Virus genome (UHGV): UHGV-0124814
Origin: a virus
DNA: 16,162 nucleotides
Direction: 5' to 3' (one strand)
Part shown: one piece after another, positions 1 to 11,173 of the stretch
Layout: every line of letters starts with the position of its first letter
Position numbering within the stretch: position 1 is the stretch's first letter
Program-made: the position numbers and the translations under genes
The notes under the pieces: model-generated
The model's input: only the letters and a program-made list of their open reading frames with translations
What the model was told of the DNA's origin: nothing
Databases searched by the model: none

Positions 1-37
1 CGCCATAATTGATTTAATTCACAAATAAAACTATAAC

Positions 38-706
38 ATGGTGAAATCAATGAAAAAAAACACAGATGATGGGGCTAAAATTTACACACCACTTACCCTA
101 AAGCTTTATGACTGGTGGGTTTTGGGAGTATCAAATCGGCTTGCATGGGGATGTCCTACAAAGGAACACCTTCTTCCACACTTTCTGGAACATTTAGGTA
201 ACAACCATCTGGATATTGGTGTTGGAACTGGGTTTTATCTTACTCACGTACCTGAGAGTAGTCTGATATCTTTAATGGATTTGAACGAAGCTAGCCTGAA
301 CGCGGCATCTACAAGGGCTGGGGAATCAAAAATTAAACATAAAATTAGCCATGATGTTTTTGAACCTTATCCCGCGGCGTTACATGGTCAATTTGATTCC
401 ATTTCCATGTTTTACCTTCTTCACTGCCTGCCTGGAAATATATCTACAAAAAGCTGTGTAATACGCAATGCGGCGCAGGCCTTAACTGACGATGGAACTC
501 TATACGGAGCCACAATTCTTGGCGATGGAGTTGTGCACAATAGCTTCGGTCAAAAACTGATGCGCATTTACAATCAGAAAGGCATCTTTTCAAACACAAA
601 AGATTCCGAAGAAGGCTTAACACATATACTCTCAGAGCATTTCGAGAATGTTAAAACCAAGGTTCAAGGTACTGTAGTAATGTTTTCCGCTTCAGGGAAA
701 AAATAG
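38..706 (+). CDS. Class I SAM-dependent methyltransferase, substrate unknown (cargo gene in the b-region position)
   Basis: 222-aa ORF; glycine-rich SAM-binding motif 'LDIGVGTGFYL', then 'LMDLNE' and 'FDSISMFYLLHCL'; visibly AT-rich; ATG at 38 lacks an obvious SD, alternative ATG at 50 is preceded by GGTGA. Confidence 0.7.
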   Translation: MVKSMKKNTDDGAKIYTPLTLKLYDWWVLGVSNRLAWGCPTKEHLLPHFLEHLGNNHLDIGVGTGFYLTHVPESSLISLMDLNEASLNAASTRAGESKIKHKISHDVFEPYPAALHGQFDSISMFYLLHCLPGNISTKSCVIRNAAQALTDDGTLYGATILGDGVVHNSFGQKLMRIYNQKGIFSNTKDSEEGLTHILSEHFENVKTKVQGTVVMFSASGKK

Positions 707-713
707 CATCCAA

Positions 714-746
714 CCGCAGCACGTTCTTGCTTAAGACGTGCTGCGG
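714..746. terminator. Perfect 10-bp inverted repeat (CCGCAGCACG ... CGTGCTGCGG) with 13-nt loop between convergent methyltransferase and tfa genes; likely bidirectional terminator
   Basis: Stem-loop read directly; sits in the 54-bp gap between two convergent stop codons; T-run follows on the - strand. Confidence 0.4.
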
Positions 747-760
747 CATAATCCCAATGA

Positions 761-1345
761 TTACTCACTGACAGGGTTCGTAGGCCACTCAATATCAGGT
801 GCAGTTGATGTATCAACACGGTTCAGCAACACCCGATACTTCTTCCAGGCTTCCAGCAACGAGTTTTCTTCCTCCGTTGCGATTTCCAGATCTGCAGCAT
901 CCTGAAGCGGCGCAATATGCTCACTGGCTACCTGCATCAGGTTGTTTTTTGTTTCTTCCGCCTCCCGGATCCGGAACAGTTTTTCTGCTTCCGTATCCTT
1001 CACCCAGGCTGTGCCGTTCCACTTCTGAAACTCCCCTTCCGGCGATAACCAGGTAACATTTTCCGGTAACGGACCGAGTTCAGAAATAAATAACGCGTCC
1101 CCTGACGCTACGTCATAAACCGTTTTACCCCGATGGTCTTCAACGAGATGCCACGATGACTCATCACTGTTGAAAACAGCCACGAAGCCAGCCGGAATAT
1201 CTGGCGGTGCAATATAGGTACTGTTTGCAGGCAGACCTGTATGAGGTGGAATATATGCGTCACCTTCACCAATAAATTCATTAGTTCCGGCCAGCAGATT
1301 ATAAATTTTTATGGTCCGTGGTTGTTCACTCATTCTGAATGCCAT
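761..1345 (-). CDS. tfa: Tail fiber assembly protein Tfa
   Basis: 194-aa ORF '[31 protein letters not shown]...' matching lambda Tfa from memory; start ATG overlaps the stf stop (TAATG). Confidence 0.9.
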
Positions 1346-4041
1346 TATGCAAGCCTCACAATGTAGTTAAATGCGATGTTTTTGACGGTGTTTTCCGCGT
1401 TACCCGCAGCGTTAACGGTGATGGTATGTCCATGTGAACCAATCGCAACGGAGTGCGTATGAGCACCAATACCGACAGTATGCGCGTGTGCACCTGCAGA
1501 TGCTGCTGTGCCGGACAGTGAGTGGCTATGATTACCATCTGTACTGGTATTCGCTAACCACCCCGTAGACATACCTACTGAGCCTTGTACACCCCAGGTA
1601 TTTTGACCTGAGCTTGTATAACCATATTGATAAGTATCTTTAAAAACACTGGGGTTAAATCGACGGCCATCTCTATGGCTGTGATTACCAGCTGCATTCG
1701 TGCTGCCACTTAAACTATGGGTATGCGCACCAGTGTTATTCGTGGATTTAGTGCCGTAATCAAACGACGATGTGGTTTTCGTCCCCAAATCCGTACTGGA
1801 TGCGCTGGCGCTGTGGGTGTGCGATTTAATGCCGTCCCGTTCCTGAGACAATACGGCACGACCACTGGCAGGTTTGCCCTTAATCGTCCAGCCACGCATA
1901 TCAGGGATCACGCCTGACGGATAAGCGGCTGCAAGTTTCGGGTAGGCAGATTTGTCAAAAGTCTGCCCCTGCATCAGGGCATAACCAGACGGAACGGTAT
2001 CCGATGGCCACGGGATTGGTGCGCCAGGCGGATAAAACTGCTCTGATGGCGTATAGAGTGAATAAACTGTACCGTCCGTTAACCCTTCCGGCTTATTAGC
2101 AGAATATGCTGGTGACGTATGAATCGTCACGCTGGCATTACTGGTATAATCCCATTGAATATTTACACCAGTCGCATAATTTCCGATTGCAACGTAAATA
2201 TCGTAAGTATCACCAGATGTATTGACCCAGGCAAAATTTGTAAACCCTGTCGATGTGCGCTGCCATAAAGCACCAGTAATCCCCTTCGGATTACCATTAC
2301 CTGCACGCAAAACAAGTTCAGATATACCTGCCTGTTGAGGTGAACCGACGTTAAATCCAGTGCCACCAATCAACGTAATTGAAACAACAGAACTCGCCTG
2401 TGGCATGGTTACCGTTGCTAATTTGAACCAACCAGCACCACCGCTGAATGACATTGTTGTTGAGTTAAGCGTACCAATATCTTTCGGCGTCAGTGTTATA
2501 TCCTCCGAAAGCGCCTTACCATTCACCTTACGGTCAGAAGGTACCCGATCATTCGCATTGTCATTCGCTGCTTTAACTGCCTTCGGTGTCGCGGCAAGCG
2601 TTTCAGACGTACTGTTTGTCGCACTGCTGAGCTGTACTATCCCCTTTTTCGTCGTGCTCGCATCCTCAAGCGCCACGGCGGATGCAATATCCTCTGCCCG
2701 TTTTGCCGCTGTCTCAGCGCGCGTTGCTGCGGATTCTGCCGTACTTTTGCTCTGTGCTGCCGCTGTCGCACTGCCAGCAGCCTCTGTCGCCTTTGTGGAT
2801 GCCGTCGTGGCGCTGCTCTTCGCTGCTGACGCCTGTCTGGTCGCCTCATCTTTTGAAGCAGACGCCGATGATGCCGATGACGCCGCCGAACTGGCGGACG
2901 ATGCCGCTGCCGTTTTTGAGGATTCTGCGCTGGTTTCCGACGCTTTCGCGTTCGTTTCGGATGTCTTCGCTGAGGAAGCAGACCTCGCTGCTGCGCTGGC
3001 CTGTTCAGTGGCTTCGCCAGTCTTCGTTGTGGCTGTTGAAGCGGATGATGCGGCGCTTTCTGCCGATTTTCCGGCGGCGGTGGCACTGACTGAGGCCTGC
3101 CCGGCACTTGTTGATGCGGCACTGGCGGACGACGCAGCCGCTGTTTTTGAATCTGCCGCAGCTGAGGCACTCTGTCCCGCTGCCGTTTCAGAAGACCTGG
3201 CGTTCGTCTCGGACGTTTTGGCCGCCTTCGCAGAATTTGCTGTCGCCGTTGCCGAGGAAGCTGCGCTGCTGGCGCTCGAGGCTGCGCTCGTTTCTGATGA
3301 TTTTGCCGCCTCTTTTGAAGCCGACGCATCCCGGGCTGAGGTGGCAGCTTCTGACGCTTTCGTGGTCGCGGTGGATGCAGAAGTGGCTGCTGATTGTTGT
3401 GACGCTGCGGCATTCGTTTCTGACGTTTTCGCCGCAGCGGCACTGGTGGCCGCCGCGCTTTTTGAGGACTCTGCAGCGGCAGCACTTTTTTCCGCTTCAG
3501 TGGCCTTTGTTGATGCCGTTTCTGCGCTGGAAGACGCTGACTGAGCCGACGACGCGGCCTGTCCGGCTGACGTGCTGGCTGCGCGTGCTGAGCCTGCAGC
3601 ATCAGTCGCATGGGTTGCCGCCTCACGGGCTGATGTGCTGGCATCGCCGGCTGACTTCTTCGCGGCTGCCGTGTTCTGTGCCACTGCGGACGCGTTACGC
3701 TCCACCTCTTCCACCATCACTTCAAAACGGCGCAGTGCCTCCGGTCGGACATCATCCTCCGTCATGGCACCGAGAAAATCATTCAGCGTACCTGGTCTGG
3801 AACCTTCATAGACGGTAATGGTCCCGGCATGTGAAGGCGGAAAACCTTCAACCAGCAGGGTGACGCTGTACTGACCATGCTCAACATCCATGCTGTAACG
3901 TCCGGCTTCATCCGGATTTTCAGAGGCCACCGTGTTCACCACCACCGTGCTGCTGGTTCGTCTGGCCTTCAGCACAATGGTGCAGTTCTGTACTGGTTTT
4001 CCTGTGCCATCTTTAAGCACGCCAGAAATTTTTACTGTCAT
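1345..4041 (-). CDS. stf: Side tail fiber protein Stf
   Basis: 898-aa ORF; N-terminus '[22 protein letters not shown]...' matches lambda Stf as recalled; central Ala/Ser/Thr-rich repeats; C-terminal HxH-rich region ending '...[11 protein letters not shown]'. Confidence 0.9.
2690..3700 (-). repeat. Degenerate tandem Ala/Ser/Thr-rich repeats inside stf (recurring '...AAKTSETNA...', '...SSASSAASS...', '...STATTK...')
   Basis: Repeated peptide blocks read from the translation; the GCN-rich DNA creates long spurious ORFs in other frames on both strands. Confidence 0.6.
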
Positions 4042-4052
4042 ACTTTTCCACC

Positions 4053-4088
4053 AATAAAAAAAGCCCGCAGCAGTGACGCCACGGGCTT
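4053..4088 (-). terminator. Rho-independent terminator downstream of lom (stem AAGCCCG/CGGGCTT followed by T-run on the - strand)
   Basis: Hairpin plus U-tract read on the - strand between the lom stop (4193) and stf start (4041). Confidence 0.5.
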
Positions 4089-4192
4089 CAGGACAGTGTA
4101 ACTTTACGTTTCCTCAAACGCAGTTCACCCCATAAGGTGGATGAACCTGCGTATCATAACAATATTTACAGAAGATAAATCGGCGTCTGTTG

Positions 4193-4792
4193 TCAGAAAC
4201 GGTATCCGATACCAACAATAAATGCATCCGTTCGCCAGTCGCCACTACCGGAACCTTCATAAGCAAGGTCAATGGTCACGGATTCGGTCGGATTAAACTG
4301 CACGCCAGCCCCCCACGCCAGAGACGTGTTGCTGTGGCGACCGTCATCACTTCCGGTCAGCACATCGTGCGTTTTCCCCTTGTTGTCAGTTACGCGGAGA
4401 TAATCCCCGGAGAAAGTCGAAATACGGCTGTAAGCCACACCCGCCATCGCATACGCGCTGAACCATTCATTCACGCGCACAGACGGCCCCGCCATTACGC
4501 TGAACCAGCGGTTACGAACGGAATCTTCATGCCAGCGGGTATCGCTGTAACGGGTCAGCTGGCGATTCTTGTCTCCTGCATAGCTGAATGACGTCACCAG
4601 CCCCAGTGTGTCCGTAAACTCATAACGGTATTTCACGTTAATCCCGTTCAGATCATCACTGCCGGGGACGTTCGTCGAGGCATGAAGATACCCCGCGCTC
4701 AGCGTGGACTGATGTTCAGACGCCCATGCAGGCGCACCGGATACGGCCAGACAAATGGCTGCGGACAAAATTGCTGCACAAACTTTACGCAT
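4193..4792 (-). CDS. lom: Lom outer-membrane protein (Ail/Lom/PagC family beta-barrel)
   Basis: 199-aa ORF 'MRKVCAAILSAAICLAVSGAPAWASEHQSTLSAGYLH...GIGYRF' with signal peptide and C-terminal aromatic residue; near-identical to lambda Lom as recalled; SD GAGAGG upstream. Confidence 0.9.
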   Translation of the reverse strand: MRKVCAAILSAAICLAVSGAPAWASEHQSTLSAGYLHASTNVPGSDDLNGINVKYRYEFTDTLGLVTSFSYAGDKNRQLTRYSDTRWHEDSVRNRWFSVMAGPSVRVNEWFSAYAMAGVAYSRISTFSGDYLRVTDNKGKTHDVLTGSDDGRHSNTSLAWGAGVQFNPTESVTIDLAYEGSGSGDWRTDAFIVGIGYRF

Positions 4793-4862
4793 AATTACCT
4801 CTCGCTTTTCTGCAATAAAAAAGGCGTCACTCCTGACGCCCTTTATTGGGGTTATAAATATT

Positions 4863-6026
4863 TCAACGAATACTGATGCCGGAAGCGGCTTTTTTGGTCA
4901 CAATCACCGTACAGTCGGTGATATTGCCTGCCCCCTGATTGCCTTTCTGGAAAATCTTAAACTCCAGAGTGACGCTACCACCACCACTAGGCATATCAAT
5001 AACTGCACTGTAACTACCGGGAATGGCCCCTTTAGTTTCTCTGGATGCGATTAATACGCCGTTTTTGCGAACTTCAAAACCATAACCCGTGTATCGCGTG
5101 CCTCCTGGGTTATTTCCGCTCCCCGGATCGTCATACGCTATACCGTTAAAAATAATGGGCGGAATAATAATCTGGCGGTCAAAGTTATGATCATCGCTGA
5201 TGGTGACTGTAACCGTACCGTTTGGTGTTTCCGTGTTACCCCACGTACCGACTTTTTTCGGGAAGGCTTTTGATACAGCTTTAACGAAATCCCCTCTGAC
5301 CTGGGTCGCCTCCAGCATGCCCTTAATCGTACAGTTCTGGTTAATCTTGACATTGTTGAGCGTTCCTGAGTTCGCATTCACACTGCCACTGATATCCGCA
5401 TTTTTAGCGGTCAGCTTTCCGTCTGATGTCAGGGAAAATACCGGAGGACTGCCACCGCTGGTAATGGTGGGGGCCGTCAGGCGCTTCAGGAACACGTCGT
5501 TCATGAATATCTGGTTGCCCTGCGCCACAAACATCGGCGTTTCATTCCCGTTTGCCGGGTCAATAAACGCGATACGGTTAGCGGCAACCAGAAACTGGCT
5601 CAGCTTGCCTTCCTCCGTGTCCTCCATGCTGAGGCCAATACCCGCGACATAATGTTTGCCGTCTTTGGTCTGCTCAATTTTGACGCCCCACATGGCATTC
5701 CATTTATCGTTAGCGTCCTTCCACTCTTTCGAAAACTCCTCCAGTCTGCTGGCGTTATCTTCCGTCAGCTCAAAGTTTTCCAGCAGTTCCTTGCCGAGAT
5801 GCGTTTTATTGATCAACCCTTTATAAAAATTCAGATAACCTTCCGCATCATCGCTCGCCCGACCGACGGCCTCCACAAATGCCGATTTACCAACGGTGTT
5901 CACGCTGCGGATATAAAAGTAATAATCATAACCTGGCTTAATATTGCTACTGGCGGCTATCCAGTACAGCGCCGTACCAAGATAACGCGCGCTGGTTTCA
6001 ACCTGCCTGATATCGATAAGCGGATT
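4863..6026 (-). pseudogene. J: C-terminal fragment (~387 codons) of tail tip/host-specificity protein J; N-terminal part of the gene deleted
   Basis: Open frame from 6026 down to the stop at 4863 with no ATG at its 5' end (first candidate is GTG at 5903); translation resembles the lambda J C-terminus as recalled. Confidence 0.8.
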
Positions 6027-6352
6027 TTATAGGCACGGGTATCACCTTCATTAAACCACACCAGCAGCGCCTGCTGCCCCTGCTCTCCGGGCATCCACGC
6101 CAGCGTGAAGCTGGTATCTCCGGCGGATTTCTGACCCTGCCCGGTCGCGGTCCAGTCCGCATCTTCATCATCGAGATAACTGTCGTCATAGGACTCAGCG
6201 GTCAGTTCGCCGGGCGTCAGGTCTTTAACTTTAGCCAGACGCGACCAGTCAACGTCTGAAAGCGGGTTCGCATAAGGGTCGCCGCTCCCGTTATAAACCC
6301 ACAGGGTGGTTCCGGCACCTTTCACCGGTATTGCTGGATTTGGTACAGGCAT
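5957..6352 (-). pseudogene. V: Truncated major tail tube protein V (N-terminal ~120 aa, then out-of-frame read-through into J sequence)
   Basis: '[20 protein letters not shown]...TRAYKIR' matches the lambda gpV N-terminus as recalled, then changes to '[20 protein letters not shown]' and stops; lambda V is about twice as long. Confidence 0.8.
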
Positions 6353-6359
6353 ATCGTCC

Positions 6360-6755
6360 TCACATTTCATAGGTAATGACATAAGTCAGATCGGCAGAAC
6401 TCCACAGGCCCGCATCATCGTCGCGCCGGTAGTCATAGCCGCTGGCCACCATACTGGTGATCAAATCTGACAGTGCCGGGACATCGCTCATCACCGGATA
6501 AATCCGGGACTCCATCCACGAATCCAGCTCTGAATCCGGCACCTGAGCAGGCAGGAAAACTTCAATATGCAGCTCCGCCTGCCAGGTATCACTGTCCAGC
6601 TCTTCGCCCGTGTATTCAGCGCCGGTGAGATAAACGGCAATTGCCGGAAAATCCGCCTCATCAAAAACAGCGGGGCGACCATCAAAAAGCGTCGCCCCGG
6701 TGTCATGCTTCTCCAGTGCATCCAGTACGGCTGCACGGAGTTCAGTATGTTTCAT
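6360..6755 (-). CDS. U: Minor tail protein U (tail terminator), apparently intact
   Basis: 131-aa ORF '[36 protein letters not shown]...' matching lambda gpU in sequence and length; start ATG overlaps the upstream stop (ATGA). Confidence 0.9.
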
Positions 6756-7165
6756 CGCTTTATTACCATTCTCAGTTGATGCTGCAGCGCATAGCCCAGC
6801 TCTTTCGGAAGACGTTCACGCCGTATCCGTTCAATATTCTGTTTAAACGCCGTGGTAAGCGGCACCGCCATCGGGATTTTCACCACATCAATGGGGTAAC
6901 GGTTTTTCCCGGCCACACGCTGCATGACATGCCACCGGCCATTTTTCAGTTGCTGAATAAACGCGCCGGGAATACGACGGTTTCCCACCACAAGCACGCT
7001 GCCGCCACCTTTCAGGGATGAACGCTGCCCCTTTTTACGACGTCTGCGGCGGGAAAGGACAACCCGCGCGTTACCCAGCTTGATTACGGGCAAATCCTGC
7101 CAGTTCTGAATGGTACGGATACTCGCGCCGAAAATGTCAGCCAGCTGCTTTTTGTTGACTTCCAT
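6752..7165 (-). pseudogene. In-frame fusion of the first 23 codons of terminase small subunit Nu1 to the C-terminal part of a Z-like tail completion protein
   Basis: 'MEVNKKQLADIFGASIRTIQNWQ' is the lambda Nu1 N-terminus, then sequence switches at ~7096 to a basic tail ('DLPVIKLGNARVVLSRRRRRKKGQ...') that I believe is the gpZ C-terminus; ATG sits at the conserved distance from cos. Confidence 0.7.
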
Positions 7166-7375
7166 TGTTCATTCCACGGACAAAAACAGAGAAAGGAAAC
7201 GACAGAGGCCAAAAAGCCCGTTTTCAGCACCTGTCGTTTCCTTTCTTTTCAGAGGGTATTTTAAATAAAAACATTAAGTTATGACGAAGAAGAACGGAAA
7301 CGCCTTAAACCGGAAAATTTTCATAAATAGCGAAAACCCGCGAGGTCGCCGCCCCGTAACCTGTCGGATCGCCGG
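7166..7375 (-). other. Lambda-type cos packaging site (cosQ side ~7345-7375, cosN 12-nt end at 7333-7344, cosB toward Nu1)
   Basis: Reverse complement of 7333-7344 is GGGCGGCGACCT, flanked by 'GATCCGACAGGTTACG' on one side and 'CGCGGGTTTTCGCTATTTATGAAAATTTTCCGG...' leading to the Nu1 ATG on the other, as in the lambda left end; sequence diverges from lambda beyond ~7395. Confidence 0.8.
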
Positions 7376-7566
7376 AAAGGACCCACCAAAAATGATAATG
7401 ATTATCAAATACGTTTATCACACTGATATTCAGAATCACTACTGAAAGACTCCCTTTGTGGTGCGCGAGGGATGCGCATAAAAAAACCACCAGCAAATGC
7501 CAGTGGCTAAAGATATTCATTGCGAATAACCATCACAAAACAACTTAACTCGTGAGGGTAGAAATT

Positions 7567-7971
7567 TTACTCGAGGCCAAATTTCTTCTTTAAATAGGCC
7601 TTCGTTAACTCCAGCCCAACATCTTTGATTGTACTCAAAGGGGCATCGCTCATTGACTTTAATTTCTCAAAAACCGTAGGTTCATTTAATGCCTGGGCGA
7701 ATTCTTGTCCCTGCGCAGATAGTCGCACGTCGGTACCCATATCTAGCATATGGCCACAATGGCGCATGTAGCCCAGTTTAGTTATGTCATCCGTTATTAG
7801 ATCTTTATTACTGATATAACCTTGCTCAATAAGAAGTAGATAATGAAACATCCCTTCATTCGAGCAGATATCGTACCCCGCATTAGCTAAGTCTTTTGTA
7901 GATATAAAGGGAGTTTTCGCTTTCAAAAATACCTCAAGCATCCCCTTCATGTATTCTAAATTTTTAACCAC
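7567..7971 (-). CDS. Hypothetical protein, 134 aa, AT-rich moron
   Basis: GTG start at 7971 preceded by strong SD (TAAGGAGGTTTTT-GTG); no family recognised. Confidence 0.55.
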   Translation of the reverse strand: MVKNLEYMKGMLEVFLKAKTPFISTKDLANAGYDICSNEGMFHYLLLIEQGYISNKDLITDDITKLGYMRHCGHMLDMGTDVRLSAQGQEFAQALNEPTVFEKLKSMSDAPLSTIKDVGLELTKAYLKKKFGLE

Positions 7972-8106
7972 AAAAACCTCCTTAGGATAATTGGAGGTCT
8001 AGAATACCGTTTGCAAGCACGTTGATAAATCATTATCACAGGCACTCAATGAATGCCTGCTGTAATTGCGTACGGTAATGAACGTAAAAAACCGCCCGAG
8101 GTATAT

Positions 8107-8331
8107 TTAGACATTAGATGGCGCTTTGTCAGTATAGACCCGGTACGCCCTGACAAACATCCCGTTACATTCAGAGTCCGCCTTGATATACGCCAATTCG
8201 TAACCCCGATGCTTTAGCTCTTCACGAGCTCTTTTCTCTTCCTTAGCCATGAAGTTAAGATCTTTAATTTCTGAGTAGGTATATGTTCCCACTATAAAAT
8301 CTCTGCCTGGCCGTCCATTTATCAGTTCCAT
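8107..8331 (-). CDS. Hypothetical protein, 74 aa, AT-rich moron (ORF-track version extends to a TTG at 8397)
   Basis: ATG at 8331 preceded by GGGAGGA SD; protein 'MELINGRPGRDFIVGTYTYSEIKDLNFMAKEEKRAREELKHRGYELAYIKADSECNGMFVRAYRVYTDKAPSNV'; no family recognised. Confidence 0.5.
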   Translation of the reverse strand: MELINGRPGRDFIVGTYTYSEIKDLNFMAKEEKRAREELKHRGYELAYIKADSECNGMFVRAYRVYTDKAPSNV

Positions 8332-8424
8332 GTGTCCTCCCAAAAAGTTGGTAGTCAGAACATACCATGCTAAGCGAGGTGAAAGCACCTTTATCAAGCC
8401 CCCCGCAGATAGACTTTGTAATGG

Positions 8425-8712
8425 CTACTTCTTCAGAAATGATTCGATGAACTCACGCCGGGGATGACGATAGTTCAGAATATCTTCTGGCATCCTCATA
8501 AAGCGGTTGTTGCCGTCTTTGGCAGTAACGAAACAGCAGTGAACTCCGCAGACATCCGTTTTGATCGTGTCGCCATACTCAAAAAGCAACTGCGCCATCT
8601 TCTCTTGCCATTCTTGCGGCATAGCCTCCATGAATACTCTCGGCATCACGCAGAACGACGCATGCGTCAGGCCAAACCACAATTGCAGGTCTTTACGATA
8701 TTCTTCATCCAT
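8425..8712 (-). CDS. Hypothetical Cys-containing protein, 95 aa ('...DVCGVHCCF...'), moron
   Basis: ATG at 8712 with AAGG ~10 nt upstream, lying 19 nt downstream of a terminator-like hairpin; no family recognised. Confidence 0.5.
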   Translation of the reverse strand: MDEEYRKDLQLWFGLTHASFCVMPRVFMEAMPQEWQEKMAQLLFEYGDTIKTDVCGVHCCFVTAKDGNNRFMRMPEDILNYRHPRREFIESFLKK

Positions 8713-8730
8713 CGTCTTTACCTTTGTTGC

Positions 8731-8756
8731 AATAAAAAGCCCCGCGAATGCGAGGC
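8731..8756 (-). terminator. Rho-independent terminator-like hairpin (GCCUCGC-AUUC-GCGGGGC then UUUUUAUU) between Rz/Rz1 and the moron ORFs
   Basis: 7-bp GC-rich stem (one G-U pair), 4-nt loop and T-tract read on the - strand. Confidence 0.5.
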
Positions 8757-8930
8757 TAAATCCTGGTGTTTGTGATGACTGGCTCTTATCTCAACGCAGC
8801 CCCTTACCGCGCGCAAGATGCTCAATATCAAGCATCAGCAATGAGATGTTAAATCTGGATTCACTCCAGAAGTGATCACCACCCTGTCTACAGAGCCAGA
8901 TGTGAAGGATGATGAGTAAAATTATCGCTA

Positions 8931-9398
8931 TCATCGAAGGCATTGCGTCCTGATGTATTCCTGAAGCGTTCTCAGTGCTGTTTGGTCGCGGATAATTCCG
9001 TCCCGGATACCGAGAACGTTTCGTCCAGCAACTGGAGAGAGTTCGACGGTGGCATCATTGCCCATGCCGGAGGCGCTGGAGGTTTCGGCTGAGGATGGCA
9101 CAGGGCATTTTCCTTTGACGAGCACCCTGCCACCATTATCAAGCTTGCGACGAAGAGCATCATTTTCAGCTTTCGCATCAGCTAACTCCTTCGTGTATTT
9201 TGCATCGAGCGCAGCAACATCACGCTGACGCATCTGCATGTCAGTAATTGCCGCGTTCGCCAGCTTCAGTTCTCTGACATTTTTGTCGCGCTGGGCTTTG
9301 TAGGTAATGGCGTTATCACGGTAATGATTCAGCCCCAGACTAAGCACACCACAGGCTACCAGCAGGACAATAATCACCACACACAGAACACGGTTCAT
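8931..9398 (-). CDS. Rz: Rz i-spanin
   Basis: From ATG at 9398 (SD GGTGGTGA): '[17 protein letters not shown]...[60 protein letters not shown]...' closely resembling lambda Rz; the longer track ORF starts at an upstream codon. Confidence 0.85.
8972..9178 (-). CDS. Rz1: Rz1 o-spanin lipoprotein, embedded in Rz in the +1 frame
   Basis: 68-aa ORF '[21 protein letters not shown]...' with lipobox 'VAGC' and proline-rich stretch '[11 protein letters not shown]'; embedded position typical of Rz1. Confidence 0.8.
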
Positions 9399-9497
9399 AT
9401 CACCACCAACGGATTGTCCAGACCAGAACAGCAATGGCCACAATACGAATGGCAAATGCCATTGCCCGAATAAGTTCAGCACTCATCTTTTTAAAGT

Positions 9498-10433
9498 TCA
9501 CGATTTCAGCGCAATGACCAGTTTTGCCAGCCCATACAGCATCGGAGACACAGCAATAGCGTATGTATTTTTCCAGTAATACGTCGTGTCACCACAAATC
9601 CACGGCACATTTACAGCACTGCCACCATGACACTGCGCGTTAAACACAGTGAGGTCAGCACGAAACTGCTTCAGCATGGCTGTAAACAGCGCAGGTTGCT
9701 GTGCGTAGGTGGCGGCGCTCATGTCAAACTCTCCCTGCATCCAGCACACCGCCAGCAACACATTTTTCGGGTTCTTCTGTAATGCCGCTTTGGTGCGTGC
9801 GATCAGGTCCTGATATAACGGTTTACCCACACCCCAGCGTGCCGAATCCTGGCTGGCCCCCGTGTCCGCACTGAATGTCCCCTCCGCGCCCTGGGTGAAT
9901 GCCGAACCACCACGACAGCATGGTACCAGCAGGATCCCCGCGTTATTCGGGATATACGGAAGCAGTTTTTTGGCAATATGTAAGCCCTGGCCGACACAGC
10001 CGTACTGCCCTTTGCTCAGGTCTGCCTTCGGATGATTCAGCGTACTCATATCCTGCACATCATGCAGACAGTGGTCAGCCGGGATGATGTCGTTATACGT
10101 ACAACTCTCTCCACCCGGAGTTACCGTGCTGCGGCGCGCCAGCTGTTTAATGCGCGGATCCGGAGCATCGTAAGAATCCGGTAACGGAAGCCCTTCACCG
10201 TAGGCCATGCCGTTGGACTGTCCGGCAAGCACAACCACGTAGAACCAGTCCGGCTCAGATGAAGGGCCGACCTGTGGATCTCCTTCAATAGCCACCGCCT
10301 GCATCAGTGTGTACGGCGTAATGGCAACCGGTCCGCCATATGGCTGCCAGCCCTCTTTCAGTTTGTGTGTCAGCTTTTCCGCAAGGTCTGACGGCGACGC
10401 CGCCCTGACAACATCATAGTGTTTAAATGCCAT
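9498..10433 (-). CDS. Prophage NanS-p-like sialate 9-O-acetylesterase (N-terminal DUF1737-like segment plus esterase core), probably C-terminally truncated
   Basis: 311-aa ORF with 'VVLAGQSNGMAYGEGLPLPD', 'GILLVPCCRGGSAF', 'CWMQGEFD', 'WICGDTTYYWK' resembling E. coli NanS/YjhS as recalled; strong SD GGGAGGA; ORF ends ~100 nt before Rz. Confidence 0.8.
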   Translation of the reverse strand: MAFKHYDVVRAASPSDLAEKLTHKLKEGWQPYGGPVAITPYTLMQAVAIEGDPQVGPSSEPDWFYVVVLAGQSNGMAYGEGLPLPDSYDAPDPRIKQLARRSTVTPGGESCTYNDIIPADHCLHDVQDMSTLNHPKADLSKGQYGCVGQGLHIAKKLLPYIPNNAGILLVPCCRGGSAFTQGAEGTFSADTGASQDSARWGVGKPLYQDLIARTKAALQKNPKNVLLAVCWMQGEFDMSAATYAQQPALFTAMLKQFRADLTVFNAQCHGGSAVNVPWICGDTTYYWKNTYAIAVSPMLYGLAKLVIALKS

Positions 10434-10626
10434 GAATCCTCCCGGCCGGGATAATATTGTGAGTAAAATGAGGAGCGGGCTGAAGTCCGGAAGTTACAGG
10501 ACAATGGCAGAAGAGAGACGACAGCCCGCAATTCGAAAAAGACCGCGCAGTTGCGCAGAGTGATTACTATGGGGTATTATTCGCCAGCTGAAATATTACT
10601 TCACGTTTTATTGTTTATTCCTTGCC

Positions 10627-10655
10627 GCCCGCGTCTCCCAGCGCGGGCTTTTTTT
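10627..10655 (+). terminator. Rho-independent terminator on + strand (GCCCGCG-TCTCCCA-CGCGGGC then TTTTTTT)
   Basis: Perfect 7-bp GC stem with 7-T run read directly. Confidence 0.4.
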
Positions 10656-10658
10656 GCC

Positions 10659-10686
10659 CACAAGAAAGCCCCTCCGGAGAGGGGCT
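10659..10686 (-). terminator. Terminator-like hairpin on - strand (AGCCCCTC-UCCG-GAGGGGCU then UUUCUUGU), back-to-back with the + strand terminator
   Basis: 8-bp stem with tetraloop and T-rich tail on the - strand, downstream of the tRNA cluster and upstream of the esterase gene. Confidence 0.35.
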
Positions 10687-10923
10687 GGAGAGTGGCGCTA
10701 TGTGCCATTGCATGGTGCCGGGTGCCTCCCGGTGAATTCAGTACCAGCACCTGAATCCGCGATTATCCCATATACCTACTCGCTGATTGCCCCTCCGCAC
10801 AGGGGGATTCACCATGCCAGTTTCTTTTAACAAACTCCCCGCAAACCAGACAACAGTCAACCGTCTGAATTGTGAGACATTTAAAAAAAAAGGCCCGCAA
10901 AAGCGAGCCAGGGAAAATAAGTG

Positions 10924-11000
10924 TGGCGCGTTGTACTGGATTCGAACCAGTGACCGATTGCTTAGAAGGCAATTGCTCTGTCCGGCTGAGCTAACAACGC
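10924..11000 (-). tRNA. tRNA-Arg (anticodon TCT)
   Basis: Reverse complement folds as cloverleaf: acceptor GCGTTGT/ACAACGC, D-arm GCTC..GAGC, anticodon stem ATTGC/GCAAT with loop CTTCTAA, T-arm ACTGG-TTCGAAT-CCAGT, encoded CCA. Confidence 0.85.
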
Positions 11001-11013
11001 ATGATGCAGATAA

Positions 11014-11090
11014 TGGACCGCCATCGGGGACTTGAACCCCGCGCAGCCAGCTTCGAAGGCTGGCGCTCTTTCCTGATGAGCTAATGGCGG
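11014..11090 (-). tRNA. tRNA-Arg (anticodon TCG)
   Basis: Cloverleaf: acceptor CCGCCAT/ATGGCGG, D-arm GCTC..GAGC, anticodon stem CCAGC/GCTGG with loop CTTCGAA, T-arm CGGGG-TTCAAGT-CCCCG, encoded CCA. Confidence 0.8.
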
Positions 11091-11097
11091 TATGTGA

Positions 11098-11173
11098 TGG
11101 TGGCCCTTGCTGGATTTGAACCAGCGACCTGGCGATTATGAGTCGCTCGCTCTCACCACTGAGCTAAAGGGCC
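11098..11173 (-). tRNA. tRNA-Ile2-like (anticodon CAT; could formally be Met)
   Basis: Cloverleaf: acceptor GGCCCTT/AAGGGCC, anticodon loop CTCATAA, T-arm GCTGG-TTCAAAT-CCAGC, CCA; overall very similar to E. coli tRNA-Ile2 as recalled. Confidence 0.8.

Follow-up and report, generated by a model that had tools for sequence, protein, structure and literature searches.

The closest known object to the locus described here is the cos-nohD(Nu1)-A' remnant of DLP12 in E. coli K-12 (also the noh locus of Qin). DLP12 is integrated at argU. It shares 3.35 kb at 98% with lambda, including R, Rz, cos, nu1 and part of A, and its Nu1 homologue is complete and works in lambda (PMC3945230). The Rpp proteins of Gram-negative cos PICIs have a complete winged HTH and their own C-terminal dimerisation helix, act with a distinct cosB, heterodimerise with the phage small terminase and block lambda packaging (PMC6739421). 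In Nu1 itself, the recognition helix alpha2 comprises residues 17-24, of which E24 contacts R3, and residues 31-39 form the wing, whose K35 lies in the minor groove. Dimerisation packs I11, F12 and G13 of alpha1 against S43, A44, I47 and A51 of alpha3, and alpha3 completes the fold, contributing to both the hydrophobic core and the dimer (PMC9026076, PMC6739421). When isolated, even the complete DNA-binding domain shows little difference in binding between specific and non-specific DNA (PMC9026076).

We analysed a stretch of 16,162 nt (virus genome UHGV-0124814; hereafter the window) in which the start of Nu1 is fused to the end of Z, the tail completion protein gene, immediately beside cos. 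The ORF runs on the minus strand from 7165 to 6752 and consists of 137 codons and a stop. The ORF is very probably a pseudogene-like relic, the scar left when a microhomology-mediated deletion in a decaying prophage joined two genes in frame by chance. The features of the junction region are as follows.

6752..7165, minus strand: chimeric ORF Nu1(1-23)-Z(79-192), 137 aa, ending at the native Z stop, which overlaps the start of U
7097..7165, minus strand: Nu1-derived codons 1-23, encoding alpha1 and the greater part of recognition helix alpha2 of the winged HTH (boundaries from PMC9026076); 23/23 residues as in lambda Nu1
7095..7097, minus strand: deletion junction with 3-nt microhomology GGA, lambda 259-261 and 8210-8212 (blastn blocks overlap by 3 nt)
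6752..7096, minus strand: Z-derived codons 79-192 and stop, 114/114 amino acids identical to lambda Z
7166..7407, minus strand: intact lambda-type cos region (alignment to lambda)
7354..7343, minus strand: 12-nt cohesive-end sequence, GGGCGGCGACCT
6360..6755, minus strand: intact U (tail terminator), 131 aa, 127/131 identical to lambda U, or 128/132 if the stop is counted (Pfam Phage_tail_U)

A sequence-only reading had placed an in-frame fusion of Nu1(1-23) and Z, with a native Nu1 start context and a basic C-terminal tail, just downstream of cos at 6752-7165. Alignment to lambda and the Pfam matches given below bear out both parents, and the in-frame join, the 137-aa length, the start context and the position beside cos were likewise recovered. 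The coordinates hold, with the strand corrected to minus. The basic tail does not: the basic stretch (RRRRRKKGQR, chimera residues 38-47) is internal and native to Z, a protein whose overall pI is 12.

Residues 24-137 of the chimera align to lambda Z residues 79-192 without a single substitution, and the N-terminal 78 residues of Z are lacking. At the nucleotide level the Z part differs from lambda at nine positions, all of them synonymous (9/9). Pfam Phage_Nu1 (PF07471) was identified on chimera residues 1-31 with 38.7 bits against a cut-off of 30 bits (profile 1-33 of 164), and Minor_tail_Z (PF06763) on residues 21-137 (profile positions 74-190 of 190). PHROGs point to the same two parents. 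In a sequence search of the PDB, 1j9i, 7lw0 and 6hn7 match query residues 1-32 only; the matches were Nu1 domains, with no Z structure among them. The product has already been deposited as "phage tail protein [Escherichia coli]".

The HMMER match to Nu1 runs beyond the junction because the residues that follow the join (D-LPVIKLGN; window 7094-7070, fusion residues 24-32) resemble Nu1 24-34 (EQGMPVLRGGG). Behind this likeness is a TGCCCGT heptamer that the two genes share; it follows GGA at a distance of 8 nt in Nu1 and of 2 nt in Z, an offset of 6 nt, and we regard the likeness as a coincidence. A longer, interrupted homology including the heptamer was considered for the junction and ruled out, since the product puts the crossover at GGA. 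Thus, the heptamer explains only the chance protein similarity past the join.

The deletion itself is clearly resolved. A blastn comparison with lambda (J02459) gave two collinear blocks that meet inside the ORF: window 7354..7095 corresponds to lambda 1..261 (98.9%; cohesive end, cosB and Nu1 codons 1-23), and window 7097..6018 to lambda 8210..9289 (96.9%; Z from codon 79, U, and V codons 1-112). Lost between them are Nu1 codons 24-181 (lambda 262-736 is missing from the window), A, W, B, C, Nu3, D, E, FI, FII and Z codons 1-78. We identified an undeleted relative in E. coli AF39 (NZ_OZ547136.1), which carries a complete Nu1-A-W-B-C-D-E-FI-FII-Z-U-V-G-T-H-M-L-K-I-J-lom-stf-tfa module. Its identity to the window is 100% over 6018-7097 and 99.7% over 1-6019. 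On the two sides of the Nu1-Z junction, identity to the AF39 prophage is 100% and 98.4%, and the same 3-nt overlap is seen in this comparison. Measured on lambda, the deletion is 7,951 bp long; measured on the intact AF39 prophage, it is 7,948 bp. The frame of Z is offset from that of Nu1 by +1, and with a length of 1 mod 3 the deletion brings the two into frame, an outcome with a prior chance of 1 in 3. Once joined in frame, the ORF necessarily reaches the stop of Z, and thus its length is statistically unremarkable.

The cos region retains all of its expected parts. The cohesive end is followed by the cosB motifs R3, I1, R2 and R1 and then by the Nu1 ribosome-binding context, and the cosQ side is present upstream. 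The start context of Nu1 (window 7187..7166, lambda 169..190) is identical to that of lambda. Alignment with lambda cos shows just two differences, a substitution and a gap of 1 bp between R2 and R1. Both are also found in the apparently intact AF39 prophage, and thus represent a natural allele rather than decay.

Further scars were identified on both sides of the chimera. The start of the intact U gene overlaps the chimera stop, and V, which follows, is truncated. Genes at the other deletion junctions include the following.

5957..6352, minus strand: truncated V (tail tube), V codons 1-112 followed by out-of-frame J sequence
9498-10433, minus strand: truncated esterase gene
8931-9482, minus strand: Rz

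Truncated V still matches Pfam Phage_TTP_12 over profile positions 1-94 of 135. At its junction (window 6018/6019), lambda 9289 is joined to 17767, so that V codon 112 continues out of frame into J codon 755. This deletion measures 8,472 bp relative to AF39, has a 2-nt overlap, and removed the V 3' end, G, T, H, M, L, K, I and the J 5' end. Beyond it lie the remainder of J, lom, the side tail fibre gene and its assembly gene. A third scar, at window 9557-9558, joins the esterase gene to Rz with a 2-nt overlap; approximately 3.6 kb is missing relative to AF39, including the holin and lysozyme genes. The NanS-p-like SASA/DUF1737 esterase gene, which abuts Rz, is thereby cut to 311 aa, compared with 617 aa in AF39. 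A further 4.72 kb was lost at window 11670/11671 with 2-nt microhomology. This segment, which is present in a less-decayed carrier (L005 775-5494), encodes hok, DUF968, rusA, the Q antiterminator and the 5' end of a methylase gene.

The result is a remnant of approximately 16 kb with at least four deletions, in which int to tfa spans only ~15.4 kb. Absent are head, tail, lysis, Q and replication genes. Upstream of the chimera, its strand carries two small phage ORFs of unknown function, Rz, the truncated esterase gene, three tRNA genes and the truncated DNA methylase gene; dicB, a YdfE-like exonuclease gene, xis and int are on the opposite strand. The tRNA genes (Arg-tct, Arg-tcg and Met/Ile-cat; window 10924-11173, minus) and a match to the sRNA family STnc100 (window 10656-10846, minus) are flanked by the truncated methylase gene on one side and the truncated esterase gene on the other. 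In Stx-type lambdoid phages, tRNAs occupy this position downstream of Q. A satellite or PICI-like interpretation of the whole element was considered and rejected, as the element is ~16 kb, has one cos and is without a replication or regulatory module.

In carrier contigs that reach further than the window, the element lies between potC and potB. The insertion splits the potABCD operon (L006 flanks 1-1053 and 17684-20414). Between tfa and potB we identified an 88-aa tail-fibre-assembly fragment and a 222-aa methyltransferase gene (window 38-706, PHROG 2132). Inside the tail fibre assembly gene (761-1345) there is a full-length Rfam IS009 match (224 bits, window 804-1002, minus). In some carriers (L009 12331-13470, L010 8156-9295 and L012 3742-4881), similarity to the window ends at position 1915, within the gene for the side tail fibre. 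What comes next is a 379-aa ORF in the opposite orientation, probably an insertion element.

Across independent NCBI, ENA, JGI and Logan assemblies, ~21 contigs encode the exact chimeric protein. These carriers are nearly clonal: ten carrier loci show zero differences across the 414-nt ORF and are nearly identical elsewhere. Using a 26-mer spanning the junction (CAGAACTGGCAGGATTTGCCCGTAAT), we found no occurrence in 5,426 complete E. coli genomes, in GTDB species representatives or in JGI metagenome contigs, and no record in the phage collection spans the junction. IMG/VR yielded a single occurrence, and the contig bearing it is identical to window 10978..6216. In many genomes, genes annotated as nohD match the Nu1 half of the probe at 100% identity. 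Taken from these sequences, the junction appears to represent one recent event. Less-decayed carriers L005 and L009 have the same Nu1-Z junction and the extra 4.72 kb, with Q and a full methylase gene. Thus, the Nu1-Z deletion predates the 4.72-kb loss, and decay was stepwise.

Signals for expression of the ORF were sought with a consensus scan. On the coding strand, several terminator-like hairpins separate the ORF from the genes that remain upstream of it; the closest is listed here.

7485..7508, minus strand: terminator-like hairpin ~320 nt ahead of the ORF start, with a 10-bp stem and then a T run

Promoter-like matches in the same scan were at chance level (8, with 7.1 expected), and do not support a dedicated promoter for the ORF. 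Lambdoid late promoters lie directly downstream of Q, and since the 4.72-kb segment with Q has been lost, the late promoter is presumed lost too. With both Q and the stretch for its promoter deleted, the sequence indicates that the chimeric ORF is most likely silent or weakly read through.

These findings are best accounted for by prophage decay. In the sequence of events that we propose, a lambda-like prophage would have integrated between potC and potB of E. coli, after which a single illegitimate deletion via the GGA microhomology would have removed all head and packaging genes. The leftovers of Nu1 and Z would have been joined in frame by chance, and further stepwise deletions would then have decayed the element. 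The partner genes of the chimera are gone. The collinear flanks, the minimal breakpoint homology and the additional inactivating deletions are those of a deletion scar in a cryptic lambdoid prophage. The chimera cannot serve as a small terminase subunit or as a tail completion protein. The oligomerisation and TerL-binding domains of a Nu1-type small terminase (PF07471) are deleted, and as for gene context, cosB is adjacent but the large terminase gene A is deleted. For gpZ (PF06763), the retained part is identical and U follows in synteny, but the full-length fold is not there. We infer that the chimera is neither expressed nor functional. As a counterpoint, the ORF is intact and has the native Nu1 start. 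The carriers show no divergence, however, so that an intact ORF says nothing about selection, and the nine synonymous differences predate the deletion and are thus uninformative on this point.

It is improbable, although slightly less so than the readings taken up below, that the ORF is incidental to an adjoining cos that has been kept as a useful cut site for a helper terminase. Cutting at cos could aid recombination with incoming phages, or packaging of the tail-fibre genes, potB, potA and pepT. The cos region is indeed intact, with its two differences from lambda shared with the intact prophage, and recombination between lambda and the DLP12 cos region is frequent, its junctions clustering at cos (PMC3945230). 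Among the carriers, too, one shows a sign of recombination close to cos. Metagenome contig L014 (760-1155) has the identical Nu1-Z junction, with a cosQ side that is AF39-type and unlike window 7355-7420, a pattern of sequence that suggests recombination at or near cos after the deletion. However, the persistence of ~250 bp in a young remnant requires no selection. Lambda-type terminase packaging needs two cos sites ~38-51 kb apart, and an element of ~16 kb with no second cos would not be packageable as a unit by such a terminase. Moreover, this explanation concerns cos, not the chimeric ORF.

The sequence-only reading had also suggested that an expressed chimera might interfere with packaging at cos, while noting that residues 1-23 of Nu1 are a partial domain of doubtful function. 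The doubt was justified and the interference is unsupported. The chimera would have to bind cosB via the HTH, or poison the incoming small terminase via the alpha1 patch, thereby lowering packaging of phages of lambda specificity, and we consider this very unlikely. The native start context lies beside an intact cosB, and the product keeps most of the recognition helix and one of two dimer patches (I11, F12, G13; PMC6739421, PMC9026076), as well as the strongly basic stretch at residues 38-47. There is also a precedent in Rpp of E. coli PICIs, which mimics the small terminase DNA-binding domain (PMC6739421). As judged from the sequence, a beta-hairpin from the Z part after the join could sit roughly at the position of the Nu1 wing. 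A chimera made at a low level could then be pictured as a poison subunit or a cos-occluding peptide, using the alpha1 patch, the recognition helix, the wing-like Z hairpin and the Arg-rich stretch, but the probability of this is equally slight.

Against interference, the chimera lacks E24, the wing with K35, and alpha3 with its dimer interface (PMC9026076, PMC6739421), and also the oligomerisation and TerL-binding domains. Even the whole isolated Nu1 domain hardly discriminates between DNAs (PMC9026076). An AlphaFold model of the chimera shows no confident fold (pLDDT 53.5, pTM 0.27). Residues 1-33 have pLDDT <50, which is weak evidence because the alignment used forces Nu1 residues onto Z columns. 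There is no obvious route to expression, given the deletion of Q and the presumed late-promoter stretch and the terminator-like sites upstream. Finally, the allele is rare, and its carriers, identical in the ORF, give no conservation signal.

Activity of the Z part in tails is just as unlikely. In co-resident lambda-like phages such a product could, for example, complement tail completion or impair it as a dominant-negative subunit. The retained Z(79-192) matches lambda Z at every residue (100%), the U gene behind it is intact, and a C-terminal helix and beta region are still predicted in the AlphaFold model of the chimera. However, the model of full-length Z (pLDDT 70.3, pTM 0.61) is most confident for an N-terminal pair of helices (residues 2-48) and for the C-terminal helix; the former are among the missing 78 residues, and pTM falls from 0.61 to 0.27. 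A Foldseek search of the PDB with the full-length Z model gave no match at E <= 0.001. With no solved structure matched to Z, the cost of losing residues 1-78 is read from AlphaFold confidence only. The element itself has lost its genes for tube, tape measure and tip, and the obstacles to expression (loss of the Q region, terminator-like hairpins) are the same as above.

That the join is an assembly or sequencing artefact is practically out of the question: prophage repeats often confuse assemblers, but the same junction and context occur in the ~21 contigs, which come from separate projects and assemblers, and carrier contigs of 105 kb and 286 kb among them have host flanks on both sides.

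Fusions of this type are not confined to this element. A homology search recovered independent in-frame fusions Nu1(1-60)-Z, gpA-Z, portal-Z, gpE-Z and HTH-Z, and in NZ_CP076527 there is a Nu1-to-Z deletion that is out of frame. The Nu1(1-60)-Z (P0106), gpA-Z (P0078), portal-Z (P0076) and gpE-Z (P0023) proteins, all from public E. coli assemblies, resemble the present one in that the N-terminus of a head or packaging protein is joined in frame to the C-terminus of Z. Their breakpoints and Z lineages are unlike those of Nu1(1-23)-Z, and thus they represent independent events. Fusion of a head gene to Z is a common kind of object, of which Nu1(1-23)-Z is one further instance.

The Nu1(1-60)-Z fusion (L016 8001-8555) has a different Z lineage and is in another remnant beside potB, potA and pepT. 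It keeps Nu1 residues 1-60, most of the DNA-binding domain (1-68), whereas the present chimera has 23 residues only; on sequence grounds it would be the better candidate for any cos-binding idea. The gpA-Z and portal-Z proteins both resume at NRRIPGAF (Z residue 113), and gpE-Z and HTH-Z (P0023 and P0027) both resume at NRVASSAIS (Z residue 30). Such sharing of Z breakpoints by unrelated chimeras could be due to a recombination hotspot or to an assembler artefact. Several of the shared-breakpoint chimeras come from Logan assemblies.

As a relic of decay, the Nu1(1-23)-Z ORF is of low significance, an ordinary pseudogene-like object. The element does provide a well-resolved case of stepwise prophage decay, with four microhomology-mediated deletions that can be ordered via less-decayed carriers, and a near-identical intact relative. 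There is also a consequence for annotation: what is deposited as "phage tail protein" is in fact a Nu1'-'Z chimera, to be treated as a pseudogene. Were interference real, random prophage decay could create an anti-phage packaging inhibitor, and the chimera would be an accidental newborn analogue of Rpp; nothing here points in that direction.

Compared with known systems, the likeness to Rpp is conceptual only: a TerS-like N-terminus near cos in a non-autonomous element (PMC6739421). Unlike Rpp, the chimera is without the wing and alpha3, its C-terminus is Z and the adjoining cosB is lambda-type; there is no sequence relationship beyond the Nu1 residues. With gpNu1 (TerS; PF07471; 1J9I, 7LW0, 6HN7), the chimera has in common residues 1-23, the start context and the position adjacent to cosB, but 158 of the 181 residues are missing. 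With gpZ (PF06763; PHROG 27 'tail completion or Neck1 protein') it has residues 79-192 in identical form, and U follows as in lambda. Unlike in lambda, the V 3' end, G-T-H-M-L-K-I and the J 5' end are lost, and thus no tail can be built. The closest parallel is DLP12. As in DLP12, lysis genes, cos and the start of the packaging operon are kept and morphogenetic genes have been lost by deletion. The two differ in integration site, which is potC/potB here and argU for DLP12, and in the fate of Nu1, which is complete in DLP12 and here consists of 23 codons fused in frame to Z.
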